Below are positions 12,718 through 28,000 of a stretch of DNA of 51,186 bases, piece by piece. A model generated the notes under the pieces. It was not told the DNA's origin, did no database searches, and saw only the letters and a program-made list of their open reading frames with translations. Within the stretch, counting starts at the first letter, position 1, and each line of letters begins with the position of its first letter. Source of the stretch: a virus; UHGV virus genome UHGV-0191814, one strand, 5' to 3'. The position numbers were made by a program, and so were the translations under genes.

Positions 12718-13197
12718 ATGCCAACCAGAAAAGAACAAATCGAATTTATCAGAGACGTATTGCGCCAAGCACGCGTACGTGAATGCATCGGCAAAGTGTG
12801 CGAAGAGTGCAAATTCTACGACTCACCGAACTGCCTTGAAACGTGCTATGCCACGGAGCTTGTGGATATGGGTATCGTTCAACTTCCGGCAGAGAAACAA
12901 AACGCTCCGGAAGCCAAGACGATTGACTTGTCCAAGAATCAAGAGTTTGCGTCCGTTACCCCAGCGGTATTTGCGCATATATCTGACGCACACTTTTCGA
13001 ACATCATTACAACTTTGATAGAATCTGTCGAGTCGTATGTCAATCTGCGCTTGGACACGTACGTAAATACACTCAAAAAACATTCACAAACGTTCCTTAT
13101 AGGCGACGGCGACGGACAATATCACAACGAGCAATATGTTCCGGTCACTACAATTGACCACATATTCACGTTGCTTTCAAACCCTGAAGCGGAATAG
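12718..13197 (+). CDS. hypothetical protein (159 aa) with a Cys cluster CIGKVCEECKFYDSPNCLETC
   Basis: GGAGG RBS (aatcggaggactaactATG). Confidence 0.55.
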   Translation: MPTRKEQIEFIRDVLRQARVRECIGKVCEECKFYDSPNCLETCYATELVDMGIVQLPAEKQNAPEAKTIDLSKNQEFASVTPAVFAHISDAHFSNIITTLIESVESYVNLRLDTYVNTLKKHSQTFLIGDGDGQYHNEQYVPVTTIDHIFTLLSNPEAE

Positions 13198-13207
13198 GAG
13201 GTACCGT

Positions 13208-13468
13208 ATGATTATCGACTTAATACTCGACAGAAAAGACCACGAAGAAGCAACGGGTAACGACATGTACAATCCGTACGCTTTCTATCGGGAAGTAATG
13301 TCGTATGAAAGCATTTTCGAGATGGACCGCGATATCTCGTCGGCCCTCGATTATGGTACTGAGGACGACGTGCGCAAAGCATTGTGCAAGTACATCGACG
13401 ACCAACAATACAACCCCGAAATCAAGAACTACGTGAACTCGAAAAAGTGGCTTGAACCTATAAAGTGA
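13208..13468 (+). CDS. hypothetical protein (87 aa)
   Basis: ATG 13208 with GGAGG RBS. The ORF track started at 13136 inside the previous gene. Confidence 0.5.
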   Translation: MIIDLILDRKDHEEATGNDMYNPYAFYREVMSYESIFEMDRDISSALDYGTEDDVRKALCKYIDDQQYNPEIKNYVNSKKWLEPIK

Positions 13469-13478
13469 AGAGGACACT

Positions 13479-13703
13479 ATGAAGTATTTTTACACTTTTG
13501 TAACAGAAACACTCACCCGCCCCGTAGTAGTAAAAGCGAAAGACCAAGAAGAAGCCGAACAGAAAGTGATCGACGCGTACTACAACGGAAAGTTTGTGCT
13601 CGACGCGGCTGACTTTGTGGACGTCAACTTCGAGACCAGAGAGGGCGACCTTGCTAAGCGTCTTTCGCCGGCAGACCAACTCAATCTGACGTACGTCGAA
13701 TAA
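13479..13703 (+). CDS. hypothetical protein (74 aa)
   Basis: ORF with GAGGA RBS. Confidence 0.5.
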   Translation: MKYFYTFVTETLTRPVVVKAKDQEEAEQKVIDAYYNGKFVLDAADFVDVNFETREGDLAKRLSPADQLNLTYVE

Positions 13704-13712
13704 GGAGGTAAC

Positions 13713-13862
13713 ATGTATACCGACGAAGCAAGACCGAATGAAGCAAAATTACAAAACATTCTCAGTAACGGATGTAACTGGGAACAACTGGCACAAGACT
13801 TGTTATCGTGGTTAAGCGACGATGAATTAAGCGACTTTGCTAGAGCCTACGGGTGGTTTTAG
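13713..13862 (+). CDS. small hypothetical protein (49 aa), missed by the 60-aa cutoff
   Basis: ATG 13713 with AGGAGG RBS at 13703-13708. Ends TAG 13860-13862. Confidence 0.45.
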   Translation: MYTDEARPNEAKLQNILSNGCNWEQLAQDLLSWLSDDELSDFARAYGWF

Positions 13863-13871
13863 GAGGCAAGT

Positions 13872-14027
13872 ATGACCATTTGTTATAGATGTTATCTTGA
13901 ACTGTTATCGCGCGGCGAACAGGTATTCACAGCAAAAGATTACGTACACGACGAAGACGGCGTACAATGTGATATGTGCGGAGAAACCATCGAAGAAGGG
14001 GACGAGATATACAATGTCTACGAATAA
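13872..14027 (+). CDS. small zinc-ribbon protein (51 aa; CxxC...CxxC)
   Basis: ATG 13872 with AGGAGG RBS at 13861-13866. MTICYRCY...CDMCGE. Stop overlaps the sigma gene start. Confidence 0.45.
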   Translation: MTICYRCYLELLSRGEQVFTAKDYVHDEDGVQCDMCGETIEEGDEIYNVYE

Positions 14028-14574
14028 TCAACCCTCAGTCGATATCGAGAAGCTCTGCACTGAGAACATTCCGCTTGTGTACTACGTGTACTGGCACAAG
14101 TTCGATAAGTACCACGACATCAAGCTACGGTTCTACGACGAACTGATATCTGCGGGTTTCTTAGGACTTTTGCAAGCGGCGAGACGATATAACCCGTCCA
14201 CTGGGTATAAATTCTCAACGTTTGCAGCAGCGTCCATCGAGCGTCGTATGTATACCGAAGCGCGAAGAATCTTCAGGTGGTATTACCGTTCACCGACCGT
14301 TTGCCTTGAAGACAGACGTAATATCCCAGACAAGAACTTCGATTCGATCGCCGCTGCGGACCAGCGTATGATTGTCAACTACGTTCTTGCCAAAGCAAAA
14401 GAACAACTGTACCCTAACCACTGGAATATTTTATGCGATTACTTGTGCGGCGTCACAGCCCCAGAACTGGCTAAGAAGTACCAGTGCAAGTCGATCGGAC
14501 AAACACTCACAAACATTTTTGCAAAGATTCGCAAAATAAGCGAACAAATTTATAAAAAGGAGACAAAAGAATGA
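14014..14574 (+). CDS. phage-encoded sigma-70-family sigma factor (186 aa)
   Basis: Region 2 signature ELISAGFLGLLQAARRYNPSTGYKFSTFAAASIERRMY. Region 4 HTH GVTAPELAKKYQCKSIGQTLTNIFAKIRK. ATG at 14014 (track ORF 13897 is in the same frame). Confidence 0.75.
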   Translation: MSTNNQPSVDIEKLCTENIPLVYYVYWHKFDKYHDIKLRFYDELISAGFLGLLQAARRYNPSTGYKFSTFAAASIERRMYTEARRIFRWYYRSPTVCLEDRRNIPDKNFDSIAAADQRMIVNYVLAKAKEQLYPNHWNILCDYLCGVTAPELAKKYQCKSIGQTLTNIFAKIRKISEQIYKKETKE

Positions 14575-14861
14575 ACACAGTCGATTTTGAAGCAACCAAT
14601 CCTGAAACCTTTGTAGGTAAAACCCTTCCGGAGCTCGTAGACGCTTTGTACCCGAACATCGAATTCAACGTCATTGCTATGCATAAGGACGTCGACGTGA
14701 TGACAGACCCCACGAGAATCGCCAAGAAGTACCCCGAAGTCGTTACGCTGCCTATCGCGGCAGTTAACGTTGTGCCTCGTGAAACGTACCAAAACCCCGA
14801 GGTCAGAGACAACTTCGTCAAATACGACGTCATTGTTACGTTTGACGATGCTAAAAAATAA
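14571..14861 (+). CDS. hypothetical protein (96 aa)
   Basis: Coupled to the sigma gene stop. Confidence 0.5.
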   Translation: MNTVDFEATNPETFVGKTLPELVDALYPNIEFNVIAMHKDVDVMTDPTRIAKKYPEVVTLPIAAVNVVPRETYQNPEVRDNFVKYDVIVTFDDAKK

Positions 14862-14877
14862 AATTGTATTAAAAAAC
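14860..14877 (+). promoter_or_regulatory. conserved early motif AAAATTGTATTAAAAAAC (copy 4)
   Basis: See 5649. Lies 22 nt upstream of ATG 14901. Confidence 0.5.
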
Positions 14878-14900
14878 AATACCCTGCGCCAGAGGCAATT

Positions 14901-15518
14901 ATGATTGACGATAAACCCGTAGTCGTTACAGACCCAAAGAAAATAAAAGAAATTAAAGAGGCGTTATCGTCGAGCAACGTATATGGCTTTGACATCTCAC
15001 CGGCCCTTCCGTCGCCACTCCCAGAGAACGCGGCGGAAATGTGGTTCGGACACAACCAAGACAAAAATATGCTTACCAACAAGGAGGTTAATATGGTAAC
15101 ATTGAAAATTGTAGCAACCGAAAAACGTGCTTATGCACAGAAAGAGAACGACGAAAACGTGATTGTTTGCCCCATCGTTAAAGAAAGCAGCGGTAAATAT
15201 TCGGTCAACATCAAGAAACTCGGCTTCGGTAAATCGTTCGTCAACATCGGCGACCTTGAAGACAAAGCCGTTACGCTCGAAGAGAACTCTCTCGTCGCCG
15301 GCAGAAGCGCAGGGCGTAAACGTAAAGCTCCCAGCGTAACCGTTCCCGAAGGATATGAAAAATTCCTGTCTGCGGACGAACTCACCATCTTCAACACTCT
15401 CGTCGAAGCAATCAACGCCGGCTTCATCGAAGAAATCGAAACTGCAAAAGCTGCAAACAAACCCAAGAGCGAACTCGGCAAAATCGCCGAAGATGTAGCA
15501 ACAGCAATGGCGGAATAA
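14901..15518 (+). CDS. paralog family member 3 (205 aa ORF); the conserved domain begins at an internal RBS-preceded ATG at 15094
   Basis: caaGGAGGttaatATG at 15081-15096. From 15094, MVTLKIVATEKRAYAQKENDENVIVCPIVKESSGKYSVNIKK...FVNIGDLEDKAV aligns with the 5718 and 6502 proteins. Confidence 0.6.
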   Translation: MIDDKPVVVTDPKKIKEIKEALSSSNVYGFDISPALPSPLPENAAEMWFGHNQDKNMLTNKEVNMVTLKIVATEKRAYAQKENDENVIVCPIVKESSGKYSVNIKKLGFGKSFVNIGDLEDKAVTLEENSLVAGRSAGRKRKAPSVTVPEGYEKFLSADELTIFNTLVEAINAGFIEEIETAKAANKPKSELGKIAEDVATAMAE

Positions 15519-15519
15519 T

Positions 15520-15924
15520 ATGGTCCCGAGATATTTTGCACACAAGATTGTTGCGGAATGTCTACGGGGAATATATCCATTGCAGCAGGTCAACGAGATT
15601 ATGTCGGCAATGCCTTTGCCAACGTATGAACAGACCAATGGAGCATTCGTCCGCGAGTTAGTTGCGTTCGTGAACTCTGACAACCGTTACAAGTTGTGCA
15701 TTGTGAATCGACGCAACTGCCGCTGGGCAATGTTTATTCTCACTCCGTATGGAAACGTCCGCACTGAACAGCTTACGTATGCATTTGGTATTCCTTATGA
15801 GGAAACGTATGACTCTGCCATCGCCAATAGTATGGACGACCTGGCGGATATCTTAGAGGAAGTCGGCTTTAACTCAACGGTTATTGCTGAAGCATTCATT
15901 GACGCCGATGACCTCTGTATATAA
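15520..15924 (+). CDS. hypothetical protein (134 aa)
   Basis: Coupled ORF. Confidence 0.5.
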   Translation: MVPRYFAHKIVAECLRGIYPLQQVNEIMSAMPLPTYEQTNGAFVRELVAFVNSDNRYKLCIVNRRNCRWAMFILTPYGNVRTEQLTYAFGIPYEETYDSAIANSMDDLADILEEVGFNSTVIAEAFIDADDLCI

Positions 15925-15929
15925 CGACT

Positions 15930-16322
15930 ATGCCTGAAATGACCGATTTAATCGCACAACTCATTGAAATCAACGATGAATGTGCGCAAGTATCACAACA
16001 GCTTGAGTCGCTCAAAGCCCGTCGAACTTCGCTCAAGAACTTGATAATCTCACAACTGAACGAGAACGGTCTGACCGCTGCGTCTGCCCACGGCAAGACA
16101 GCGAAAGTTGTAACCAAGTATTCGTATTCAGTAATCGATCCGGAGAAGTTCAACGAACTCGACTCGAAGTATCACACCGCCGCGTTATACGGCATCAATT
16201 CAAAGAAGCTCAACGCGTTCTGTTCTGACTTGAAAGAAATATACGGCGAAATTCCTGCCGATTTGTTAAGCACCCTTTCAGGTTTCGAATACAACGACAT
16301 CAGTTTTACCAAATCTAAATAG
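15930..16322 (+). CDS. hypothetical coiled-coil protein (130 aa); could be a recombination-associated Gp157-like protein
   Basis: N-terminal helical LIAQLIEINDECAQVSQQLESLKARRTSLKNLI. Family assignment is unverified. Confidence 0.4.
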   Translation: MPEMTDLIAQLIEINDECAQVSQQLESLKARRTSLKNLIISQLNENGLTAASAHGKTAKVVTKYSYSVIDPEKFNELDSKYHTAALYGINSKKLNAFCSDLKEIYGEIPADLLSTLSGFEYNDISFTKSK

Positions 16323-16331
16323 GAGACACTT

Positions 16332-17027
16332 ATGGAAAAAGAAGTCGAAAACAAAATTGTCCCAACCGTTCCCGCCGATAACGCGCTCGGCCCTATCGCA
16401 CAAAGCCCCGAAGAATATCTCAGCGAAGTATTCGCAGACGCTGACGGGCTGCAACTCGAATTTATGAAAATCAATACCCCGACAGCCGGCGGTACGATTT
16501 TCGAAATCGAAGACCCCACTACCGGGACCACCGCTCCGATGAAAACGCTCGATTGTGTTATCTTGAAGAGCTTCCCGTCGAACGTTATGTATCTTGACGA
16601 TTACGACGGAAACGCTGTTCCGCCCGATTGTTCGTCGAATGACGGCGTCATAGGCGTCGACAAAGATGGCAACGAACACGAGTGTGCTAAATGCTCGTAC
16701 AATCAGTACGGCAGCGGCAAGAACGGAGGCAAAGCTTGCAAAAACCGTCGTCTGCTCTACGTGTTGCTTGACGGCGAACAAATTCCCCGAGTCATCAACT
16801 TACCTTCAACGAGCTTATCCAACCTCGCGAAGTTCCAGACACAAGTTCTTATGGCAAGGAAACGTTTGCGCGATTACCGCGTGCTCATTTCGCTGACCAA
16901 AGTAACGAGCAAAACGAACATTCCGTATTCGAACTACGTCTTTGCAACTGCGGGTGTCTTGGAAAACCCTGAAGACATCGCTCGCGTCAATGACGCAATG
17001 GCTTTACTTGCGGCGCTCGGTAAATGA
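16332..17027 (+). CDS. hypothetical protein (231 aa) with a central C..C...C..C zinc ribbon
   Basis: CSSNDG...HECAKCSYNQYGSGKNGGKACKN. GGAG RBS. Confidence 0.5.
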   Translation: MEKEVENKIVPTVPADNALGPIAQSPEEYLSEVFADADGLQLEFMKINTPTAGGTIFEIEDPTTGTTAPMKTLDCVILKSFPSNVMYLDDYDGNAVPPDCSSNDGVIGVDKDGNEHECAKCSYNQYGSGKNGGKACKNRRLLYVLLDGEQIPRVINLPSTSLSNLAKFQTQVLMARKRLRDYRVLISLTKVTSKTNIPYSNYVFATAGVLENPEDIARVNDAMALLAALGK

Positions 17028-17476
17028 TTACCGACGAGCAAATGTCGTCGATGGTCCAACGTGGGGTACGAGATATGGAGTATACTTTTTCTCGTGCCCA
17101 TTACCGCGTTGACATTGAGAGTCTTGCGTGGGACGCAATATTCGACCTGATTCAAAAAGAAGAAACGTTCCAAACGTATTCTTTGTTTCGCTTGATATTG
17201 TATCGTAAAATCTTACGAGAACTCACAAAACATCGCAACATATTCGTTGCCGATATTCCTGACTCACAGAACAGTTGTTCTGATTTCACTGACGAGATTT
17301 GCATTACAGACCTTGACGTGTCTACCCTTACCGATGACGAAAAGCTTTTCGTTGAATGGCTTGTTTGCGACTCACTTACTAAGACGGACATCGCTGAACT
17401 TACCGGAATGTCACCGTCCACTGTTCACAGAACATACCGTCGCATAATCACTAAGCTAAAGGAGAGAAACGTATGA
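17024..17476 (+). CDS. sigma-factor-like protein (150 aa) with a region-4 HTH
   Basis: C-terminal LTKTDIAELTGMSPSTVHRTYRRIITKLKE is a typical sigma region 4.2. Confidence 0.55.
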   Translation: MITDEQMSSMVQRGVRDMEYTFSRAHYRVDIESLAWDAIFDLIQKEETFQTYSLFRLILYRKILRELTKHRNIFVADIPDSQNSCSDFTDEICITDLDVSTLTDDEKLFVEWLVCDSLTKTDIAELTGMSPSTVHRTYRRIITKLKERNV

Positions 17477-17856
17477 ACGAATTAACAAAAGGACACCCGA
17501 CCGACGCTGGAATAGATATCGCTCTTGAAAAAGACGTACACATTCCCGCTCACTCGGGCGTGACAATAGAGCTTTCAGTTGCGAATTTAGATTTACCCGC
17601 GTTCACTGCCGGCTTTATCTTCATTCGCAGCAAATGGGCTCATCTACCAATCTTGATACAGAACCCGCCGATCGACGCGCATTACACCGGGCCGCTTCAC
17701 GTCTGGGTCCACAACTTCTCAGACGCGGATATCGTGCTCTTCGGTGGCATAGCGTACTTCCAGTTGGTTGTGTTCAAGATTATTCACCCCGCACTGCCTG
17801 ACGTTGAGATAAAAGATTATCGCCCGCGTGCAGCCGAGCGGGACACAACGAGGTAA
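17473..17856 (+). CDS. dUTPase-family nucleotidohydrolase (127 aa, lacks C-terminal motif V)
   Basis: Motif 1 DAGIDIAL, motif 2 IRSKWA, motif 3 PIDAHYTGP, motif 4 YFQLVV. No glycine-rich motif 5. Confidence 0.65.
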   Translation: MNELTKGHPTDAGIDIALEKDVHIPAHSGVTIELSVANLDLPAFTAGFIFIRSKWAHLPILIQNPPIDAHYTGPLHVWVHNFSDADIVLFGGIAYFQLVVFKIIHPALPDVEIKDYRPRAAERDTTR

Positions 17857-17861
17857 ACTAT

Positions 17862-18761
17862 ATGAACGCGTATGAACGCATAAACCAATACTCTACCGCA
17901 ACGGAGTTATGGGAAAACTTGTACTGTCGGTTATCGAGTCCATATATGCCGAAGTACCCTTGCCGTAAGAATATGGGCGGTGACGAAACGACGTTTCTTG
18001 TCGGTCATCATTCCGTTCTGACTGATACGAGATACCCGCTTGTATTGTCGGAAACAAGAGCAATGTCGCTCCGTTACCTTGTCGCCGAGCTTCGTTGGTA
18101 TATCAAAGGCGAGGACACGTGGGAATCGTTCGAAACGAATGCCGGCAAGAACATCTGGAAATCGTTATCAGATGACGGCGTCCACGTTAACAGCAACTAC
18201 GGTCACAAGGTACAATACGCTTACGGTTTCAACCAACTGGAATATTGTATCAACCTGCTCAAAAAGGATATGTACACTCGGCAAGCAGTGATTCATATCA
18301 AGGCGCCGTTGAAGCCTGAGACTCCGTCCAAAGATACGTGCTGCACTGTTGTGTTGCAATTCGCGTACAACTATTTGACCGAAGGTCTTGACGCGATAGT
18401 CTATATGCGCAGTTCCGATATATGGAAAGGCATTGTATATGACTTGCCGTTCTTCACGTTGTTGTTGCAAGTCTGTGCTGCGAACGCTGGGCTCAACTAC
18501 GGCGAACTTCATTTCATTGCCGGCAACGTACACTTGTACACGGCCGACGTGAAAGAGTTTATCGAGTCCCCGCTAAGTACACGAATCTCTTGCCGCGAAG
18601 ACCGCTTCTATCCGGTCAAAGCTCTCGACCCGATCGACTGGAACCAGATGATACCGATTCTGACGACGGGTACTCTGAACGACTCTATCGAGCGGCTTTG
18701 CGAAGCAAACAACCAATTCAAGCTCTTGAAGACAATGTCGGAGGTAAAGAATGCCAAATAA
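17862..18761 (+). CDS. thymidylate-synthase-family enzyme with Asp at the Asn177-equivalent position; predicted dCMP hydroxymethylase or methylase rather than canonical ThyA
   Basis: ThyA-like blocks YPLVLSETRAMSLRYLVAELRWYIKGEDT, GHKVQYAYGFNQ, CCTVVLQFAY and MRSSDIWKGIVYDLPFFTLLL. An ungapped alignment with E. coli RSCDVFLGLPFNIASYALL puts Asp (codon 18441-18443) opposite Asn177. Confidence 0.6.
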   Translation: MNAYERINQYSTATELWENLYCRLSSPYMPKYPCRKNMGGDETTFLVGHHSVLTDTRYPLVLSETRAMSLRYLVAELRWYIKGEDTWESFETNAGKNIWKSLSDDGVHVNSNYGHKVQYAYGFNQLEYCINLLKKDMYTRQAVIHIKAPLKPETPSKDTCCTVVLQFAYNYLTEGLDAIVYMRSSDIWKGIVYDLPFFTLLLQVCAANAGLNYGELHFIAGNVHLYTADVKEFIESPLSTRISCREDRFYPVKALDPIDWNQMIPILTTGTLNDSIERLCEANNQFKLLKTMSEVKNAK

Positions 18762-19248
18762 TATCTGGCTCGATGGAGCTAACGGAACAGGCAAAACAAC
18801 TCTTGCAACCGAGCTCACCCATTATGGTTTTGAGTACCATCATAACGGTAGACCCATAATCAAGCGCGGCTGGTACATTGTCTTGAAGTACGTCATTTTC
18901 GAACTCACTCATAAGAACGCGGTTGTTGACCGTTGTTTCGTGTCTGAATGGGTCCACGGAAATTACGAACGTAAACGCTCTTCGTTGAGTATCAAGCAAT
19001 GTATCTTTCTCGAAAAATTCATATCCCGATTCGGCTCTGGGTTGACGATATTCGTCCCTGAGGACGTTGAATCGACGGCCGACCGTATTGCAAAGCGTGA
19101 AGAGGAACACCCTCTCTCGCCTGATAAGGATATGCTCAGTGAAATCATTACAGTATACGAAGCGTATAGCGTTTGTAGCGGACACCCGTTGTGCCGCGTG
19201 AAATATGCATCGGACGTTCTCAAAGTCCACATCGCAGAAAACTTATAA
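18751..19248 (+). CDS. deoxynucleoside monophosphate kinase (thymidylate-kinase-like, 165 aa)
   Basis: P-loop GANGTGKTT and DRCFVSEWVHG (DRY-like). Overlaps the TS-family gene end. Confidence 0.65.
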   Translation: MPNNIWLDGANGTGKTTLATELTHYGFEYHHNGRPIIKRGWYIVLKYVIFELTHKNAVVDRCFVSEWVHGNYERKRSSLSIKQCIFLEKFISRFGSGLTIFVPEDVESTADRIAKREEEHPLSPDKDMLSEIITVYEAYSVCSGHPLCRVKYASDVLKVHIAENL

Positions 19249-19257
19249 GGAGACAGT

Positions 19258-19695
19258 ATGATAATCATTTTCGATGCCCCAACATACGAGCTGACAAGCT
19301 CGAAGTACGATGGCATTTTCAAAGATATTCCGATGTCGTTCACGACCGAGGAAAGACTTGTAGACGGAACAGTTACCGTCGTTCCCGTACTCACAGAATC
19401 TCTGTTAAAGAAAATCAAAGAACTCGACCCGTCGGGTTATTGTATTTACGTCTTCGCGTGTTCTCGTAACAAGCGCAAGTTGAAACAATACGATAAGTGG
19501 TTTTTGAAATACGGCACAAGCGCGTCGTTGCTCAATGCTTCTAAAATGCCCGACAGTGAGGCAGCCGACGAAATCGCAGCGCACCTTTATATGGTTGTCA
19601 ACGCCTTATCGGCAGTGTTGAACTTGAAGGCTACCGAGGAGGACGACGACGATGTCAACAGCGGGTCCGGAGAAACAACTCGAGAATCTCATTAA
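19258..19695 (+). CDS. hypothetical protein (145 aa) with an acidic C-terminus
   Basis: GGAG RBS (ttataaggagacagtATG). Confidence 0.5.
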   Translation: MIIIFDAPTYELTSSKYDGIFKDIPMSFTTEERLVDGTVTVVPVLTESLLKKIKELDPSGYCIYVFACSRNKRKLKQYDKWFLKYGTSASLLNASKMPDSEAADEIAAHLYMVVNALSAVLNLKATEEDDDDVNSGSGETTRESH

Positions 19696-19972
19696 AACTG
19701 AACTTATACGGCGCAGGGCGTGGTTTGTTAAGATAGCAGCATCGCCCGAAATGCCTCGTGGAATACCCGACATACTCGCGTGTTATCACGGACATTTCAT
19801 CGGCATCGAAGTCAAGCGCCCCGGCCGTAAGAACGGTTTATCGGAACATCAGAAAATACAACTGGCGAACATCACGAAAGCGGGTGGAATAGCGTTAGTT
19901 GTAAACGATTTTGATAAGTTTATTGTAGAACTGAATAGTTTGGAGAATAGCTTAAATGATACTAACAGATAA
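19652..19972 (+). CDS. VRR-NUC domain nuclease (106 aa)
   Basis: GIPDILACYHGHFIGIEVKRPG...LSEHQ pattern typical of VRR-NUC (PD-(D/E)xK). Adjacent to the SNF2 helicase as in many phages. Confidence 0.65.
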   Translation: MSTAGPEKQLENLIKTELIRRRAWFVKIAASPEMPRGIPDILACYHGHFIGIEVKRPGRKNGLSEHQKIQLANITKAGGIALVVNDFDKFIVELNSLENSLNDTNR

Positions 19973-21239
19973 TTCTGGACGTCAGTACGATTTATTCGAC
20001 TATCAAATCTCTGGCGTCGATTTACTTTTATCACACCCACGATACATTCTCTACTGGGACTGCGGCGTAGGCAAGACACTTGCTCTCATCGCGGCTCTCA
20101 ATCAATTGCCATACGGCAAAGTTCTCATTGCTTCCCCGAAGTCAGTGCGCTTCGATATGTGGGAAAAGCTCGGTATTCCTATCAATCACGACGTGACGTA
20201 TTTGCATTACGATATGTTCCCTCGTGTAACAAACCTCCCTACGTTCGATTATATCATCTTAGACGAGTGTCACAAAATCAAAGGTTGTAACACTCAGACT
20301 GCGCGCCTTGCTGCGAAGCTGTCTAAGAAAGCGAAGGTCGTGTGGGGAGCGTCGGCAACGATCGCTGCTAACTCGTACATCGACACATTCCGTATTCTGC
20401 GTAATATGGGGGTTGCTGAGTTCCAGTACCCTGACTCAGCGTTCATTGGGCGTTATTACAATACGTATTCGTTCCCAGTTGCAACGCGTTACGGTACTAA
20501 GAACATCAGCAAGCCGACGACGGTCAGGTTGCAATTTGCCGACGAGCTTAGTTCGACGTTCGCTCAATACTGTGACAGTATCAATCTTGACGACGTTCAC
20601 AAGTTACCAGAGCGTCACGAAGATGTGATTTATGTCGACGGTATGGCAACGCCTGAGTATTCCGCAATTGACGCTGGTATTATCGCCCTGAATGACGAGG
20701 ATATCTCTATTGTCGCGAAACTCGAAGCATGCGCTAAGGCGAGACAAGCTGCAGGCGGTTTCATTTATTATAACGATATTGATACCGGAAAACAACTCGT
20801 TAAGAACTTGTGCCCTGATAAGAACCCGAAAATCGAAGCAATGCGGAAATACGTTCGCGAGCACAACGATGAGAATATCATTATTGCTTATTCGTTTATT
20901 CACGAGAAAGAACTTCTCGAACGAATGCTTGCCGAAGAAAACAGAACTGTAACAGACGAAGTATCTATGCTGCCGTATGTAAATACGTTCTTACGGCAGA
21001 TAAGCCGCGGCGAAGGACTGAACCTTCAAACGTGGGCGCGGCGAATGGTTATGTATTCGTACGATTACAGCTACATTGAATGGACCCAAATGCAAGGACG
21101 TATCTATCGCGTTGGACAGACCAAGGAAACGTACTTCACGTCGTTGATTTCAAGAGGAACGATTGACGAGAAAGTGTACCACGCTGTCCAGACGAAACAA
21201 ACGATTGACGAGTACTTGCGCTCGGTGACACGTCATTAG
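19956..21239 (+). CDS. SNF2/DEAD-like superfamily-2 helicase (427 aa)
   Basis: Walker A WDCGVGKTL, DEAH-box ILDECHKIKG, C-terminal helicase motifs (QGRIYRVGQ). Confidence 0.75.
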   Translation: MILTDNSGRQYDLFDYQISGVDLLLSHPRYILYWDCGVGKTLALIAALNQLPYGKVLIASPKSVRFDMWEKLGIPINHDVTYLHYDMFPRVTNLPTFDYIILDECHKIKGCNTQTARLAAKLSKKAKVVWGASATIAANSYIDTFRILRNMGVAEFQYPDSAFIGRYYNTYSFPVATRYGTKNISKPTTVRLQFADELSSTFAQYCDSINLDDVHKLPERHEDVIYVDGMATPEYSAIDAGIIALNDEDISIVAKLEACAKARQAAGGFIYYNDIDTGKQLVKNLCPDKNPKIEAMRKYVREHNDENIIIAYSFIHEKELLERMLAEENRTVTDEVSMLPYVNTFLRQISRGEGLNLQTWARRMVMYSYDYSYIEWTQMQGRIYRVGQTKETYFTSLISRGTIDEKVYHAVQTKQTIDEYLRSVTRH

Positions 21240-21249
21240 GAGGTATAGA

Positions 21250-23220
21250 ATGACTGAATTTGAAAGATTCAATACTATATTTCCTAACTCGGTTTACCGT
21301 CTGATTAAGGCCGGAGACAAGACACCTGAGGGCATTCAGAAGTACCCATACAAAACGTTGTACGTTGGGCCAAGTCAACGTGTCGGCTGGATAGTGTCTG
21401 AAGGACATTGTGTTGTCGACTGTGACGATATGACCACTGCGAACGTGGTTAGAAAATATGTTAAGTTGAACGACATTCATTGTTGTTACTTCAAAACGTC
21501 TCGCGGAATGCACTTCATTTTTCGTTTGCCTGCAGAAGTGCGCGTCGCTCGGACGATTACTAACTCGTCGCACGTCGTTACGATGTCGTCCTTAGAAGTC
21601 GACTACCGCGTCGATGGGCGTGGATATATTGTCTTACCGCTCAATGACCCTGACCGTGAGTGGACTCATCTCGATGAACAAATCGATTACTTGCCGATTC
21701 CGTTATATCCTTTCGGCCAAGCAGGGTCAATCAATCTCGATGATGTCAACCTTATGGGTTTAAGTGAAGGCGACGGGCGGAACGACGCATTGTTCAGATG
21801 GATAAACCGCATCAAGAGCAAGACAAACGACGTGAACTCATTGTCCGCTATCGGGCAAATGATAAACGAGTGTCTGTTTGCGAAGCCACTGTCGAACGCT
21901 GAACTTAATTCGACGGTATTGCGTGAATCGAATCTCGCCGCGGCGAACACCGGTGCTAAACGTAAGACTCTTGCCGAGCAAGAAGTGGACGTTGCACGTC
22001 AAATGCTGCTTGATAAACAGTTTTACAGCGATGAGAAACGTTTGTACGTGTTCGATGGACGTTACTACAAGCCTATCGCAGACCGTTTTATTGAACGTGA
22101 AATCTCTGTCGAGTACGCTCCGCAGTTCCGTTCAACGAGCCGTGAAGAAGTGTACAAACATCTTCTGACCAAAGCGCCACTCGTCGAAGACGAAATGAAC
22201 GCCGCTTGGCACTTCATATCTTTCAACAACTGTGTACTCGATATCAAGACTGGGGAAACGTTCCCGCACTCACAACAGCTTTTTGTGTCGACTCACATAA
22301 ACCACAACTATATTGAAAACGCTCCGCCCACTGCGATTACGAATGCGTTCTTGGATATGTGCTCGAATAACGACGTTCAGAAACGAGCGATTATACTCGA
22401 AATGATCGGCGATTGCTTGCTTAAAAGAGCATTATTCCAAAAGATGTATCTTATCTACGGTGAAGGCGGAACGGGCAAATCGACGTTGTTGCGTATCATT
22501 ACGTCGCTCGTCGGTGAAGAGAACGCGGCATTCTTGTCGTTACAGGACCTTGAAAATACGTTCTATCCGTGGGAGCTTGTAGGTAAGCTCGTCAATATCG
22601 GTGACGATATCCCGTTTGGTAAAATCAACGATTCGTCTCTTATTAAGAAACTTGTATCAGGCGAACGTATGATGATACAACGTAAGTTCGGTCACCCGTC
22701 ATCGTTTTCGAACTACGCAACAATGATTTTCACTACGAACAAGCTGCCGAACACTGCAGACCGTACGTCGGGCTTTATGCGTCGTTTAGTGCTCATCGAT
22801 ATGAATACTAAGATACAAAAGCCGACGACCTTCTTCTGTGACAAACTGAGCGAAGCCGACTTCGAGTATTTGATTTACCTTGCAGCGTCGGCAATACGTG
22901 CCGCTCTTGAACGCGGAGAACTCACTCGCTCGTTTGTGGTTGACAACAACTTGCAAGCTTACCAGCGTATGCAATCGGCCTTGTCCGAATACATCGACGA
23001 CGAAAACATCACTCGTGACTCGATTATTGGCCGAGACGTTGGCTCTGTCTTCGCGGAATACGCGTTGTATTGTCAGCTTAACGGTATGCGTCCGATAGGA
23101 AAACATAGTTTCGTATCTGAGTTGTGTTCACTGCTCTTCATCACTAGCGCCAAATTACCCGACGACGCTGGGCAGAATATTGTACTGAGGTTTACTTATG
23201 TCGACAACAAAACTAATTAA
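21250..23220 (+). CDS. primase-polymerase (AEP prim-pol) fused to a D5-like SF3 helicase (656 aa)
   Basis: N-terminus GHCVVDCDD, SRGMHFIF, VDYRVDGRGYIVLP (prim-pol motifs). C-terminus Walker A GEGGTGKST and Walker B LVNIGDD. Confidence 0.75.
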   Translation: MTEFERFNTIFPNSVYRLIKAGDKTPEGIQKYPYKTLYVGPSQRVGWIVSEGHCVVDCDDMTTANVVRKYVKLNDIHCCYFKTSRGMHFIFRLPAEVRVARTITNSSHVVTMSSLEVDYRVDGRGYIVLPLNDPDREWTHLDEQIDYLPIPLYPFGQAGSINLDDVNLMGLSEGDGRNDALFRWINRIKSKTNDVNSLSAIGQMINECLFAKPLSNAELNSTVLRESNLAAANTGAKRKTLAEQEVDVARQMLLDKQFYSDEKRLYVFDGRYYKPIADRFIEREISVEYAPQFRSTSREEVYKHLLTKAPLVEDEMNAAWHFISFNNCVLDIKTGETFPHSQQLFVSTHINHNYIENAPPTAITNAFLDMCSNNDVQKRAIILEMIGDCLLKRALFQKMYLIYGEGGTGKSTLLRIITSLVGEENAAFLSLQDLENTFYPWELVGKLVNIGDDIPFGKINDSSLIKKLVSGERMMIQRKFGHPSSFSNYATMIFTTNKLPNTADRTSGFMRRLVLIDMNTKIQKPTTFFCDKLSEADFEYLIYLAASAIRAALERGELTRSFVVDNNLQAYQRMQSALSEYIDDENITRDSIIGRDVGSVFAEYALYCQLNGMRPIGKHSFVSELCSLLFITSAKLPDDAGQNIVLRFTYVDNKTN

Positions 23221-25000
23221 CATCATCTTTGACTTTGAAGTCTTTCCTAACTGGTGGTGCTGCTGCACTCGTCGTGTTGATACGCCTGATAAAATCAGCG
23301 TTATCACGTCCGACGACCCTGCAGCAGTGCGCACTCTGCGTCTCTTAATTGCAAATTGCCGTCTTATCGGCTTCAATATCCGTTCATACGACTTGTATAT
23401 CTTGTATGCAATCGTGAGTGGTTGTACTCCCTCAGAAGTGTACGAAGTGTCTGATAACATCATTCACGACGTCTCGACTCAATGGACGTCGCACTTCGGG
23501 CATTACCGTTGGAACTGGATTGACTTGTACAGCGACTGGAAATTCGGCTCATTGAAAATGTATGAAGCGAATCAAGGTATGTCGATCGTCGAGTCAAGCG
23601 TTCCGTTCGGTAAAGAAAATCTCAGTCCGCGTGACAAGATGGAAATCATCGAGTATTGCCACGCCGACACAAATGCAGCATTACAACTGTTCCACGACCG
23701 CGAGGGGTATTTCTCAATACACGAATATGTCTCGGAGCATTACAACATTCCGCTTCAGAAAGCGTATCAGCGCACAATGCAAGGACTCACCGCTGAAGCG
23801 ACCGGCGTACGGAAAACGCCGTGTACTGCCGCAGAGGACAAACGTACATCGATCTACGTTCTTGATTACATTAAGGAAATGCTTGACGGCGTTGACCCGT
23901 TCGCATTCCTGTTGCAAGACCAGAACGAAGTACGTACGTTCGTGTATGACGGCGATGTGTATAAACTCGGCGTCGGCGGCGTGCATAGCGACTTCGAGCA
24001 ACCGATTATCGTCAAGAGCAACGAGAACGGTCGAATCTTCTCGATTGATGTTACGCAGTATTATCCGAATATGCTTATGAACTTCGACCTTATGCCGCGT
24101 GGTATGGACGAAGCCGGCAAGAGAATATTCGGCGATATGATAAAAGCTGTCCGTGACTTAAAGGTCAAGGTCGGTGAGTACGAAGCCGCTGGCGATTTCG
24201 AGTCTGCCAAACAAGCGAAGTCACTGCGTGATAAGTACAAAGTCCTCATCAACGCTGTTTCTGGGGCAATGCGCAACAAGTACTCGAAATTCTACGACCC
24301 GTCGCGTATCATAACGATGTGCGCTGTCGGTGAGTTTCTCTTGATTGCCGTTGTCAATGACTTGAAAAAGCAATTCCCGGGTACTGAAGTACTTCAGACA
24401 AATACCGATGGCGCGTTCTTATACGTACCTAACTGGGAAGGCTTTGAGGAAGCGGTCGAGAAAATCAACAAACGCATCGGCTTCACGTTTGAAGTCGACG
24501 CTGGCAAAATGCTTGTCCAGAACAACGTTAATAACTACATCTTCGTTAAAGACAACGGACAAGCGAAGAGCAAAGGTTCGTGGGTATATCCGAAGCGTGA
24601 TAGGTTAAAACCCGCGTCGTACGCGATATCTCATATTGCGGCGTTCAAACTCTTGCTCGACGGTACGCCGATCGAAGAGACGGTCCGCAATTGTACCGAC
24701 ATAATGGACTTCGCGATGTGCGTCAAGAGCGGTACTTCGTTTGAACGGACGATATACAAGACCGACAAACAAGAACTCGAGGTCAACAACACAAATCGAT
24801 TTGTCGTATCACGCAGCGGCATCGGCACATTGTACAAAATTAAAGACGGCTCCGCGCACCGTTTCCCAGATTGCCCGGACAATATAATCTTGCTCAACGG
24901 CGATATCGCTGATTACACGCTTGAAAGCTTAGATATCGACTACGATTTCTATATCCGATACGCCCACGAGCTCATTCCGAACTTCATCTGTCTCCATTAA
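23198..25000 (+). CDS. family-B DNA polymerase (compact, 600 aa)
   Basis: Exo I IFDFEV, Exo III YCHAD, motif A DVTQYYPNM, motif B KVLINAVSGAM (Kx3NSxYG), motif C QTNTDGAF. Confidence 0.6.
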   Translation: MSTTKLINIIFDFEVFPNWWCCCTRRVDTPDKISVITSDDPAAVRTLRLLIANCRLIGFNIRSYDLYILYAIVSGCTPSEVYEVSDNIIHDVSTQWTSHFGHYRWNWIDLYSDWKFGSLKMYEANQGMSIVESSVPFGKENLSPRDKMEIIEYCHADTNAALQLFHDREGYFSIHEYVSEHYNIPLQKAYQRTMQGLTAEATGVRKTPCTAAEDKRTSIYVLDYIKEMLDGVDPFAFLLQDQNEVRTFVYDGDVYKLGVGGVHSDFEQPIIVKSNENGRIFSIDVTQYYPNMLMNFDLMPRGMDEAGKRIFGDMIKAVRDLKVKVGEYEAAGDFESAKQAKSLRDKYKVLINAVSGAMRNKYSKFYDPSRIITMCAVGEFLLIAVVNDLKKQFPGTEVLQTNTDGAFLYVPNWEGFEEAVEKINKRIGFTFEVDAGKMLVQNNVNNYIFVKDNGQAKSKGSWVYPKRDRLKPASYAISHIAAFKLLLDGTPIEETVRNCTDIMDFAMCVKSGTSFERTIYKTDKQELEVNNTNRFVVSRSGIGTLYKIKDGSAHRFPDCPDNIILLNGDIADYTLESLDIDYDFYIRYAHELIPNFICLH

Positions 25001-25008
25001 ATATAAAT

Positions 25009-25040
25009 ACCCCCGACGTAATGTCGAGGGTATTTTTTTA
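25009..25040. terminator. bidirectional rho-independent terminator between the convergent polymerase (+) and giant ORF (-)
   Basis: ACCCCCGAC-gtaat-GTCGAGGGT (8/9 bp stem), followed by ATTTTTTTA on plus and ATTTATATTT on minus. Confidence 0.65.
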
Positions 25041-28000
25041 TTTCGTAAACTTCGTTAGCAGCTTTCCGCTTTTCCGGAACTTGATTTTATCTGGTCCGAA
25101 TATCGCGACCAATTCTTGATATTCTTCTGCACTTGAAGTAGTGTACGTATTCCCTTGATTCAACCAATACTCAATCTTAGCATACTTACTTGCTTTACTG
25201 TAAACCCATTCAAGCATATCTTTTCGGTCACGCTTTCCTGTGGCTTTCTTTGTTTCTTTCGACAACTCGTCGGGCGCGTCTAAGTATTCTTTACTCGAAA
25301 CCATCTTGTTACCGATAGAACGTACATACGCTCCACGTCTCTGTTTGTACTGTTCCTTTTCCTTCCCAGTCAGAACAATCACGTCGTCGTTGTATTGTAA
25401 CCTGCCACTCGGTCCAGTGGTCGTCGTGCCAAGTCGTATCGCTTCGAGTTCGAGGTAATTCGTACTTTCCTTGATGATTCTCGTGGGCAACACGATTTGC
25501 ATTAAGTTCAACCAACGATGCGTTCCGTCATCATTGACATACTCACCGGTATACGGGTCGATTCTGTTCGGTACGAGGTACGTAAACCCAGGAAGCGCTG
25601 CAGCAAGACGGTAATACCACTTCGACCCTGTCTTCTTCAAGCTCGGGTCGATGACACGTGCGATGCTCTTGAACAGTGCCGGAACGTACTGTAACAGATA
25701 CGTACCCCACGCACTCGCAACGACGTCGCCGACGTTATCATTGTATCGCAAGATATTGTCGAATGTTCCGAGCAAGGTCAGGTTGCTCAACACGTCTGCG
25801 AACGTGTCCCAAGTCTTGTCGTTCATCTTCGTCTTGCTCGTGATCGACGCGCCAAGGAGCAACGCGCTGATACCCGGCGAGAGTAAGTCGATAGTGATTG
25901 CATAGTCACCGACACGAATGACGAGGTTGCCGTAAGTATCTTCGTCCCAGTCAAGCACGCCACTCAGACCAGCGGCAATGCCCATTGCGAACAGAACAGT
26001 GCCTATCGTCGCTGAGGAAATGTCTCGGCCGATGATGTTCGCGAACTGCGGAACGATATCGTACAACTGACTTCCACGTTGACGTGCTTTATCAGCGTCA
26101 CCGCCGCGCATTACTTTCTTTTGGATAAGCGCTTCGTACGTCTTACCTGTCATCGGGTCAACACGCGTTTCGACTGTTTCAATGAACAACGTTTGTGTTT
26201 GATACTTATACGCTGCAAGGTCCGCAAGGACTTTCACCCAGTTGAACGGTGAGAATCGAATCAAGAACGACGTGATATTTGCAGTGACCTTCGCGAACGG
26301 TAAGAACGACGTGAATAGCAAGCCGAGGACCGGGAATTCATACGACATCTTAGCGTACCACTTCGTGAAGTTGTTCGACTTACGGAGGTACAACTCCCAC
26401 GAGTCGGCAACCGCCATATTGAAGACCATCTCGAAGTCATCTTTGGTTATATCTTTAAGGTCCTTATTCAGCGATTCAAGGTACTGTGCAAGACGTATCT
26501 GTATCTCACGACCGACGAAGATAACGTCGCCTTTTTCAAGCATATCGAACGTGAACGAATACCACTTCTGCAATGCTTTGTTTACGACGTCATCGCCGAA
26601 GAACGGATACGCGTTCGAGATATTCTCAATGATATTGTCGCTCGTCGGGTTGAACTTACTACCTTTCAGTATAGCGTCGAGACGTCCGTTGTTTATAATC
26701 TTTTGATCGATATACGCTCTGACGTCAGATGGAATATCTTTGAACTTACGACGTTTCGCAGTAAGAACGAACTCGCCTTTTATTCCAAGCTTCTCGTTGA
26801 TTTTGGTAGCTAAGTACTGCGCAAATCGTTCGCTTACTTCATTTATTCCACTGAGGGCAATGTTCGACGTTAAGTTCCTGACGTGCGTTGCCGGGTTCGA
26901 CAACATCGCAGTGTACCTGAACGAGTTGATACGACGAGTGATGATTTTAAGAGCTTCGTGATAACGTTTCTGTTTCAACAACTCACGTATCTTAGGAATC
27001 TTGTTCGCCATATCGAGCAACAGTTGCTGCTGGACTTCCATTGCTTTCTTGTAGTCCCCAGAACGACGAGCGTCGACAAACGCGGCGAGTAACTCTTCGT
27101 CTGCTACAATGCCCATCTTACGAGCAGCATCGCGGTAACGGTCAGCGTCGGCCTGTGTATTTTCAACGTGCGATTGTGCAGCGAGCAGCGTACCAGAGCT
27201 ACTTGAAAGTTGCTTTCTGAATCTGCCGACAATATCACGAGTTGTCAACGACATATTCTGGTTGAACTCGTACAACGTTGCAAGCGTGTAGAATATCGCA
27301 AGACGTTGGTAGTCGCTCAGATTCTGGTACTTCGCGCGGACCATATCCATAAAGTCGACGATTGACTCGTTGCTCCATTCCATCAACTGCGCTTTGAACG
27401 CGTTGTTGAATTGTTCGATATCCGTGACCGGTCTGAGGTTTCTGCTCGGACGCCACGATTTGAGTTTGTTGAAACGTTCCTTTGTATTCGGGCTCAGTAC
27501 GTAATCTTTCGGTTTACGGTTCGATTTGACGTCCGGCCCGCCAGTAGTGAGGTTCGTTGCTTCAATCAAGCGACCGCCTTTCTTAGATTTCTCAACCTTG
27601 ACGTTCTTGTTTGCTTCATACTCTTCTTGGGCTTCGGCAAGAGCAGCGTTACGAATCTTCGCATTCTCTGCAGCGTTTGCAAGGTTTGTTTCTTGTTGCA
27701 ACTTATACGCCTCTTTGCGCTTCTCGATTTCTGAGACTTCTTTCTGTGCAACGCGTTTAGCCGTTTGGTCCATTGCCTCAACGTCGTGAGCGTCTTTACC
27801 AGTTTTAAGTAATATCTGGTCATACACTTGTCGACGTTGTTCTGGCGTCAACTTGTTCGTCGCTTGTTGTATCTCGATCGCTGCGCCAAGAGGACCGTGA
27901 CGACCTGTATTGCGGACGAGTTTCAAGAGGAAAGCATACACATTTTGGACCGTCAACGGCAATTTCATATCGCTAATAAGGTGATAAGGTATCTTATTTG

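Follow-up and report, generated by a model that had tools for sequence, protein, structure and literature searches.

The uncultivated phage UHGV-0191814 carries three consecutive genes for which the best explanation is a T4-type pre-replicative pathway of cytosine replacement. The 51,186-base stretch that was analysed (the window) represents a phage genome or near-genome, and the three genes encode a dUTPase-like protein, a thymidylate synthase (TS) homologue and a P-loop kinase. Judged from their sequences, these proteins probably direct the conversion of deoxycytidine monophosphate (dCMP) to 5-hydroxymethyl-dCMP (5hm-dCMP), which would enter the DNA as 5-hydroxymethylcytosine (5hmC). A first-pass annotation had predicted 5hmC, 5-methylcytosine (5mC) or another non-canonical pyrimidine. 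The prediction of a modified cytosine draws support from alignments, from profile and fold comparisons and from residues that are invariant across the family, and is here narrowed to 5hmC. The module consists of three tightly packed open reading frames (ORFs) at 17473-19248, within an uninterrupted plus-strand block of replication genes, and a GGAG/GAGG ribosome-binding site (Shine-Dalgarno) precedes each ORF:

17473..17856, plus strand: trimeric-dUTPase-family protein, 127 amino acids (aa), candidate dCTP/dUTP pyrophosphatase (PF00692)
17862..18761, plus strand: TS-family enzyme, 299 aa, predicted dCMP 5-hydroxymethylase (PF00303; profile and fold comparison)
18751..19248, plus strand: P-loop kinase, 165 aa, predicted (hydroxymethyl-)deoxynucleoside monophosphate (dNMP) kinase (PHROG 761)

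The genes had been described as three consecutive overlapping genes. They are consecutive, but within the module only the TS and kinase genes overlap (by 11 nt), and a gap of 5 nt separates the dUTPase-like gene from the TS gene. The dUTPase-like gene shares 4 nt with the sigma-like gene upstream.

Membership of the middle gene in the TS family was borne out by its match to the Pfam family Thymidylat_synt PF00303 (E=2.1e-23, 83 bits against a cut-off of 24.3) and to PHROG 160 (E=5e-32), and by the TS fold of its AlphaFold2 (AF2) model. The model had a mean predicted local distance difference test score (pLDDT) of 82.6 and matched TS-fold structures at a probability of 1.00. Foldseek ranked MilA, a CMP 5-hydroxymethylase, first (root-mean-square deviation 2.1 A), T4 dCMP hydroxymethylase next and thymidylate synthases after these. 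A profile built from 15 members of the family gave the same order, scoring MilA at 147 bits, T4 dCMP hydroxymethylase at 92 and ThyA at about 88. The protein comprises a TS core (approximately residues 40-231), a disordered linker (232-248) and a helical C-terminal extension (250-299).

The residue that specifies the pyrimidine was assigned with three alignments. The single protein was aligned by HMMER with solved TS and MilA chains; the 15-member family profile was aligned by HMMER with solved MilA, TS and T4 dCMP hydroxymethylase chains; and the protein was aligned by MAFFT with E. coli ThyA (numbering verified at 18 landmark residues), T4 gp42 (a sequence identical to PDB 1B49) and MilA. 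All three agree in placing Asp194 at ThyA Asn177, T4 Asp179 and MilA Asp186. This confirmed the earlier claim, drawn from an ungapped comparison, that Asp at 18441-18443 occupies the Asn177 site, and comparison with ThyA, T4 gp42 and the 5mC-type homologue of phage PaMx74 likewise returned Asp, not Asn, at the specificity site. The surrounding segment is RSSDIWKGIVYDLPFF (residues 183-198), of which RSSDIWKGIVYD (residues 183-194) ends at Asp194, and the GNVHLY block that the first-pass annotation had pointed out is present at residues 221-226. The active-site features are as follows:

18333..18347, plus strand: active-site segment D158-T-C-C161-T162, with Asp158 at ThyA Leu143, Cys161 at the catalytic Cys146 and Thr162 at His147
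18408..18419, plus strand: R183-S184-S185-D186, equivalent to ThyA R166-S167-C168-D169, with Ser184 of the deoxyribose type
18441..18443, plus strand: GAC codon of Asp194, the cytosine-specificity residue (ThyA Asn177, T4 dCMP hydroxymethylase Asp179, MilA Asp186)

Individual ThyA positions correspond to these residues of the window enzyme:

ThyA 58: Glu76
ThyA 80: Trp99
ThyA 94: Tyr113
ThyA 126: Arg140
ThyA 127: Gln141
ThyA 143: Asp158
ThyA 146: Cys161
ThyA 147: Thr162
ThyA 165: Met182
ThyA 166: Arg183
ThyA 167: Ser184
ThyA 169: Asp186
ThyA 177: Asp194
ThyA 207: His224
ThyA 209: Tyr226

The catalytic set of Cys161, Glu76, Tyr113, Arg183, His224 and Tyr226 is complete and invariant in alignment A1. 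The signature D143/C146/T147/M165/R166/S167/D169/D177 (ThyA numbering, used for positions hereafter) was present in every one of 85 TS relatives, which comprised the TS homologues of 79 IMG/VR loci and of six other loci. At positions 143, 146, 147, 165, 169 and 177 the window enzyme reproduces exactly the pattern of T4 dCMP hydroxymethylase, MilA and the TS homologue of Enterococcus phage VPE25. Ser184 (position 167) and Arg140 (position 126) are of the deoxyribose type; MilA has Ala176 and Lys133 instead.

Published residue rules allow the signature to be read in terms of substrate and product. An Asn177-to-Asp change is a mark of cytosine substrates, an acidic residue at Leu143 goes with hydroxymethyl over methyl products (a correlation), and an Asp169-to-Asn change marks the flavin-dependent 5-hydroxy-dCMP synthases, all 9 of 9 tested D169N enzymes having made 5-hydroxydeoxycytidine (PMC13326640). 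In a virome association, positions 177 (Asp) and 147 (non-His) were the best at telling whether a TS homologue came from a cytosine-modified or an unmodified contig (PMC8670742). TS enzymes that use uracil and the deoxyuridine monophosphate (dUMP) hydroxymethylase have Asn at 177, and the ribose preference of MilA is due to Ala176 and Lys133, such that an A176S/K133R mutant switches MilA to dCMP (PMC5175136). PaMx74 is named, with Xp12, as a phage in which C is wholly replaced by 5mC, and its TS is homologous to tested producers of 5-methyl-dCMP (5mdCMP) (bioRxiv 10.1101/2024.12.05.627091); the PaMx74 TS homologue was therefore taken as the 5mC-type reference. It carries Asn/Pro/Leu at 143/147/165, whereas the window enzyme carries Asp/Thr/Met, and in BLASTP searches the window TS was 24% identical to PaMx74 TS over 123 residues, compared to 31% for both VPE25 and MilA. 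Because Asp/Thr/Met at these positions is shared with T4 dCMP hydroxymethylase, MilA and VPE25 and not with PaMx74, the product was narrowed from 5hmC or 5mC to 5hmC. The sequence thus supports a dCMP-directed enzyme that would feed modified cytosine into DNA. A ribo-CMP hydroxymethylase was also considered and was rejected by Ser184 and Arg140.

The C-terminal extension was examined separately. Residues 251-299 (18612-18758) form confidently modelled helices (pLDDT ~90) and are common only to the closest lineages (P0001-P0004 and L017), relatives of 220-250 aa being without them. No structural match for the extension was found, and a Foldseek comparison with viral models was uninformative.

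The first gene of the module had been called a dUTPase-family hydrolase, and its family membership held: the protein matches Pfam PF00692 (E=1.3e-12, 48 bits against a cut-off of 22), and PDB dUTPases match it with their motifs aligned (best E=1.3e-8). The NCBIfam dut equivalog models gave 26-36 bits against cut-offs of about 103. A dCTP deaminase was rejected for this gene, since TIGR02274 scored 21 bits against a cut-off of 92.8. Motifs I (DAGID), II (RS, Arg52-Ser53) and III (PPIDAHYTG) are kept, and the catalytic Asp68 and deoxyribose-gating Tyr71 of motif III are invariant (alignment A2). Motif IV reads AYFQ instead of the canonical RIAQ (R-x-A-Q), with loss of the Arg and retention of Gln97. 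The protein had been said to lack motif V, which is true of the canonical RGxxGFGSTG; however, the first Arg of the motif (Arg119) is kept and is invariant in 17 aligned sequences, and a conserved tail takes the place of the rest:

17827..17853, plus strand: remodelled motif V, RAAERDTTR, C-terminal, replacing RGxxGFGSTG (alignment A2)

This tail, R-x3-RDTTR, is two residues shorter than the canonical motif and is without the Gly-rich loop and the Phe, a residue that stacks on uracil. In dUTPases, motif V touches the beta- and gamma-phosphates and the uracil base (dUTPase review). The tail is conserved as R-x3-R(D/C)(T/V)T(R/E) in relatives with E<=1.2e-12 and in the L017 orthologue. Members of A2 with the remodelled form are the window protein, P0018, the L017 orthologue, P0019, P0021 and P0022, and in the relatives that rank next the motif is the canonical RGxxGFGSTG. 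When 1.84 billion representatives were searched exhaustively with the dUTPase-like protein, only six proteins were returned at E<=1e-10, and a word-indexed protein search returned near-identical copies only.

The chemistry of the dUTPase fold, in which a deoxynucleoside triphosphate (dNTP) yields a dNMP and pyrophosphate, is the step performed in T4 by the dCTPase gp56. T4 gp56 itself has the all-alpha fold of the MazG-like superfamily (dUTPase review). From its genomic context, the likeliest role of the dUTPase-like protein would be that of a dCTP/dUTP pyrophosphatase, a role to which we give about an even chance. A more specific proposal, which is tentative and on the doubtful side, is that the remodelled lid belongs to a pyrophosphatase dedicated to dCTP (or dCTP/dUTP) and derived from a trimeric dUTPase, and that this non-homologous replacement for gp56 yields, with the hydroxymethylase and kinase, naked unglycosylated 5hmC.

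The third gene encodes a P-loop kinase with the following motifs:

18775-18801, plus strand: Walker A, GANGTGKTT
18928-18933, plus strand: D60-R61 motif, like that of thymidylate kinase (TMPK)

It had been annotated as a dNMP kinase. The P-loop kinase with its Walker A motif stands, and assignment as a dNMP kinase is weakly suggested by profile matches and context. These matches were to PHROG 761 'thymidylate kinase' (E=1.5e-9) and, below threshold, to TIGR00041 dTMP kinase (E=4.7e-4) and Pfam dNK (E=0.009); two sources label the protein 'thymidylate kinase'. A word-indexed protein search with the kinase found two relatives.

The proposed pathway follows from these assignments, and its substrates, the activity on dCTP, how completely cytosine is replaced and which base virion DNA finally carries are all predictions. 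The dUTPase-fold protein would convert dCTP (most likely) and dUTP (probably) to the monophosphate. Hydrolysis of dCTP would supply the hydroxymethylase with substrate and at the same time lower the level of the canonical nucleotide that competes with the modified one. In the TS homologue, a folate-dependent dCMP 5-hydroxymethylase, Cys161 would attack C6 of dCMP, with the cytosine ring oriented and protonated by Asp194, and the methylene of methylenetetrahydrofolate would be transferred to C5. The exocyclic methylene intermediate would then be hydrated and not reduced, with Asp158 in place of the water-excluding Leu143 of ThyA, to give 5hm-dCMP as the product. The P-loop kinase would phosphorylate 5hm-dCMP, host NDP kinase would form the triphosphate, and the phage DNA polymerase (23198-25000) would incorporate 5hm-dCTP, so that the predicted end product is undecorated 5hmC.

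The same predicted logic and reaction order are found in T4, in which gp56 dCTPase, gp42 dCMP hydroxymethylase and gp1 dNMP kinase act. T4 gp42 shares with the window enzyme the Cys/Glu/Tyr catalytic residues, Asp at 177, an acidic residue at 143 (T4 Asp145) and Thr at 147, and T4, like the window as predicted here, has a phage kinase for the modified dNMP. In contrast, the window TS is only 23.5% identical to gp42, the hydrolase has a trimeric dUTPase fold and not the all-alpha MazG-like fold of gp56, and the kinase, unlike gp1, is a 165-aa TMPK-like P-loop protein with no Pfam DNMK match (a kinase family in 12 related loci has one). Furthermore, no alpha- or beta-glucosyltransferase was detected in the window, and its genome of about 51 kb is unrelated to the Straboviridae.

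The closest analogues with experimental support are the Enterococcus phages VPE25 and VFW (Andrewesvirinae). In VPE25, genes for a P-loop kinase of 171 aa, a TS homologue, a trimeric dUTPase of the canonical type and a beta-glucosyltransferase resembling that of T4 follow one another, and the VPE25 TS homologue is 31.5% identical to that of the window over 238 residues with an identical active-site signature. VPE25 DNA behaves as glucosyl-5hmC: it is resistant to bisulfite conversion and to EcoRI and MspI, and is digested by PvuRts1I, which depends on 5hmC or its glucosylated form (5(g)hmC) (PMC4999554). By analogy, VPE25 shows that in a real phage hmC-type DNA can go with a TS of this clade that has a kinase gene and a dUTPase-fold gene beside it. 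VPE25 differs from the window in its canonical motif V (RTSDGFGSTG), T4-like beta-glucosyltransferase, second sugar-transferase-like gene and gene order, and similarity between the two kinases is marginal (E=0.026). MilA, which acts in mildiomycin biosynthesis (PDB 5JNH/5B6D), is the best profile and structural match and shares the Asp/Asp/Thr/Met signature and a C-terminal extension past the TS core; it differs in its preference for ribo-CMP through Ala176/Lys133 and in serving antibiotic biosynthesis instead of phage replication. The 5mC system of Xp12 and PaMx74 resembles the window in Asp at 177, in acting before replication and in having an NTP pyrophosphohydrolase gene adjoin the TS homologue, while PaMx74 differs in N143/P147/L165, a MazG-like hydrolase, a dCMP-deaminase-family gene and a dihydrofolate reductase (DHFR) gene.

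These comparisons bear on the alternative identities of the enzyme. In a dCMP methyltransferase of the Xp12/PaMx74 type the methylene would be reduced to give 5-methyl-dCMP and 5mC DNA. Asp at 177 is common to the tested 5mdCMP-producing TS homologues (bioRxiv 10.1101/2024.12.05.627091), engineered ThyA N177D makes 5mdCMP (cited in PMC8670742), and the logic of a hydrolase and kinase module fits a methyltransferase equally well. We consider this activity quite unlikely, given Asp/Thr/Met at 143/147/165 against the Asn/Pro/Leu of PaMx74 and the closer relationship of the window enzyme, in both profile and fold, to MilA and T4 dCMP hydroxymethylase than to any methyl-forming TS. In addition, a dCMP-deaminase-family gene adjoins the enzyme in Xp12, PaMx74 and the mSCD-B5 contig, and PaMx74 also has DHFR and MazG-like genes, none of which was detectable in the window. 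A uracil-directed enzyme, either an ordinary thymidylate synthase or an SPO1-type dUMP hydroxymethylase supplied with dUMP by the dUTPase-like protein, would account for the dUTPase-family gene directly upstream and for the annotation of the closest isolate match, from Agathobaculum phage AB434P2, as 'deoxyuridylate hydroxymethyltransferase'. It is nevertheless very unlikely: ordinary ThyA and dUMP hydroxymethylase were rejected on Asp, not Asn, at 177 in the window enzyme and all 85 relatives, His147 and Gln165 of ThyA are also replaced, and the Agathobaculum protein itself has D143/T147/D177. The least probable of the alternatives, one we regard as extremely improbable, is a flavin-dependent 5-hydroxy-dCMP synthase (RB69 gp48 or DLP3 gp80 type) making 5-hydroxycytosine for glycosylation. 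Such synthases also carry N177D and L143D/E and are MilA-like in fold searches; however, the diagnostic D169N is missing, and because Asp is retained at this position (Asp186 in the window enzyme, Asp in all 85 relatives) the synthase was rejected. No arabinosyl- or glycosyltransferase or NDP-sugar genes were found in the window.

It is also conceivable that 5hmC is only an intermediate, which an unrecognised enzyme encoded by an orphan ORF tailors to a hypermodified cytosine in virion DNA. Most window ORFs are without a Pfam or PHROG match, and tailoring enzymes are frequent near related TS homologues: among 69 loci of the TS clade, PF18724 amino-acid:DNA transferases were found near the gene in 22, radical S-adenosylmethionine (SAM) enzymes in 16 and 10 (SPASM included), TET-associated glycosyltransferases (PF20691) in 14 and GT4 glycosyltransferases in 9. 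Examples of IMG/VR loci (L032-L100) with such neighbours are L099:2937-3875, L075:2799-3737, L094:2003-2950 and L046:3716-4864, and NDP-sugar genes lie near the TS homologue in L004. In the window, however, Pfam searches of 29 further ORFs, and PHROG searches of 10 of these, were negative for glycosyltransferases, carbamoyltransferases, amino-acid:DNA transferases, radical SAM enzymes, dCMP deaminases, DHFR and MazG-like proteins. When all window ORFs were compared by BLAST with the families that recur next to related TS genes, no homologue of a tailoring enzyme emerged either. These scans agree with the earlier remark that no glycosyltransferase lies nearby. In the syntenic loci L001 and L017 the triad likewise stands alone, within the sequence available. 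Tailoring of 5hmC in this phage is therefore unlikely, although less so than the three enzyme alternatives above, and plain 5hmC is the default prediction because no tailoring enzyme was detected in the window.

Two further observations were made on the neighbours of related TS genes. Directly downstream in the IMG/VR loci lie conserved small ORFs, of families of 129, 142 and 123 aa, in 32, 25 and 18 loci, respectively. In L003:8709-10720 (Logan ERR14657223) a TS relative with the same signature directly follows a PF18748 HMUDK-family gene and an AAA_18 kinase gene. HMUDK is the 5-hydroxymethyluracil (5hmU) DNA kinase family of thymidine hypermodification, and this arrangement hints at kinase-initiated hypermodification of 5hmC, not 5hmU.

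Several findings weigh against the 5hmC pathway as proposed. With the motif IV Arg and the Gly-rich and Phe elements of motif V lost, the dUTPase-like protein may have little activity, may be an ordinary dUTPase or may have no catalytic role, and base specificity in the dUTPase fold is set by main-chain contacts, which are not readable from sequence. Only 13 of the 79 IMG/VR loci have a dUTPase-like gene 5 kb or less from the TS homologue, and 10 of these are the same species as the window; for this reason the gene is not a general partner of the TS. Single-sequence and profile searches of the kinase against the PDB gave matches at the level of the P-loop, none of them significant, and its AF2 model, made from a 3-sequence alignment, had a pLDDT of 44. 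The Leu143 rule is a correlation and not a proven determinant; PaMx74 has Asn, and no bulky hydrophobic residue, at this position. Finally, the window strongly avoids several short palindromes, which would be unexpected for GATC, CATG and GGCC if every C were protectively modified:

GATC: observed 49, expected 162, z -11
CATG: observed 29, expected 117, z -10
GGCC: observed 54, expected 95, z -5
TTTAAA: observed 0, expected 10, z -4

Relatives also avoid such sites, namely L017 (GATC, CATG), L001 (CATG) and L003 (GATC, 0 against 40), and no comparable avoidance was seen in VPE25 (8.6 kb sampled) or PaMx74 (50 kb sampled). Possible causes are incomplete replacement, a failure of naked 5hmC to block the relevant enzymes, or some other cause. 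The avoidance lowers confidence in complete protective replacement and does not contradict the assignment of the enzyme. Lower counts than expected were also observed in the window for CTAG (11 observed, 38 expected) and CTTAAG (1 observed, 9 expected).

The uncultivated phage is widespread. The exact TS protein is present in NCBI as DAR26262.1, 'MAG TPA: hypothetical protein [Caudoviricetes sp.]', and the cluster formed around it at 90% counts 555 members, whose contigs measure about 47-55 kb; identical dUTPase-like and kinase sequences occur on 185 and 288 contigs, respectively. Synteny extends further. The order sigma-like/dUTPase-like/TS/kinase/VRR-NUC/SNF2/primase/polymerase is kept in two diverged lineages, L001, in which the three module proteins are 48% (dUTPase-like), 42% (TS) and 35% (kinase) identical to those of the window, and L017, in which the kinase P0017 is 49% identical (BLASTP) and the dUTPase-family gene encodes 130 aa. 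In 46 of the 79 IMG/VR loci, a P-loop kinase akin to that of the window is encoded no more than 5 kb from the TS homologue. No match was obtained when the 8 kb around the module were compared by Megablast with 50,697 deposited phage records, and there is thus no close cultured relative.

The closest isolate match is L019:3838-4500 of Agathobaculum phage AB434P2 (OP172633.1). Since this protein has Asp at 143 and 177 and Thr at 147, its sequence suggests that it is a dCMP hydroxymethylase, and its annotation as 'deoxyuridylate hydroxymethyltransferase' is probably wrong. In addition, a 1.4 kb segment at L005:7240-8657 (Logan ERR13195601, 17.1 kb) is 83.5% identical to window 17767-19181 and contains the complete TS homologue, flanked by the 3' end of the dUTPase-like gene and by the greater part of the kinase. 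Its surroundings are bacterial-looking, with ABC-transporter/Bmp/phosphoribosyltransferase genes on one side and a 1872-aa DUF4011/AAA_11/AAA_12 helicase on the other, and it begins just after an AT-rich promoter-like stretch. The segment is either a piece of phage DNA that was captured or the product of a chimeric assembly.

The ends of the window were without a terminal repeat, and the genome may therefore be incomplete. Genes outside the module include a SNF2 helicase, a D5-type primase, two sigma-like proteins and the following:

1025-2917, minus strand: portal
2954-4501, minus strand: terminase
23198-25000: DNA polymerase

A scan for sigma-70 promoters and terminators across 13000-25500 found promoters not in excess and no convincing signal within the module, and placed a bidirectional terminator at about 25005-25035, where the plus-strand block ends. 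The first sigma-like protein (13897-14574, plus strand) matches Sigma70_r2 (E=1.6e-9). The second (17024-17476, plus strand) has region-4-like helix-turn-helix matches and a match to PHROG 1740 'RNA polymerase sigma factor', and is kept directly upstream of the nucleotide module in L001, L017 and L018. Directly after the kinase is a 145-aa orphan ORF (19258-19695, plus strand) with an acidic C-terminal tail and no match in Pfam, PHROG or NCBIfam. The ORFs that occupy this place in L001 (142 aa) and L017 (133 aa) have only an N-terminal MxxIxDAxTYxL in common with it. Beyond the DNA polymerase, across the bidirectional terminator, a giant ORF of 3306 aa (25038-34958, minus strand) is without a Pfam match and is possibly a virion-associated giant protein or a polymerase; L001 holds a counterpart of at least 3112 aa in the same position.

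That TS homologues with Asp177 mark cytosine-modified phage DNA is established; the rule is in general use and has been borne out on viromes (PMC8670742, PMC13326640). Modestly new here are the remodelled dUTPase-fold partner, a candidate new solution to the exclusion of dCTP, and the apparent absence of decoration. If confirmed, the pathway would add a widespread uncultivated phage to the short list of those with a pre-replicative 5hmC pathway outside the T-even group. Three small genes without a glycosyltransferase could also offer a handy means of producing 5hmC DNA in vivo. A modified C, if present, would alter bisulfite and enzymatic methyl sequencing (EM-seq), nanopore base-calling, restriction-based methods and the cloning of such phages. 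Replacement of cytosine by 5hmC, as in T4, is a well-known anti-restriction strategy. Its presence would also bear on which host defences, such as type IV restriction and 5hmC glycosylases, are able to act on these phages.

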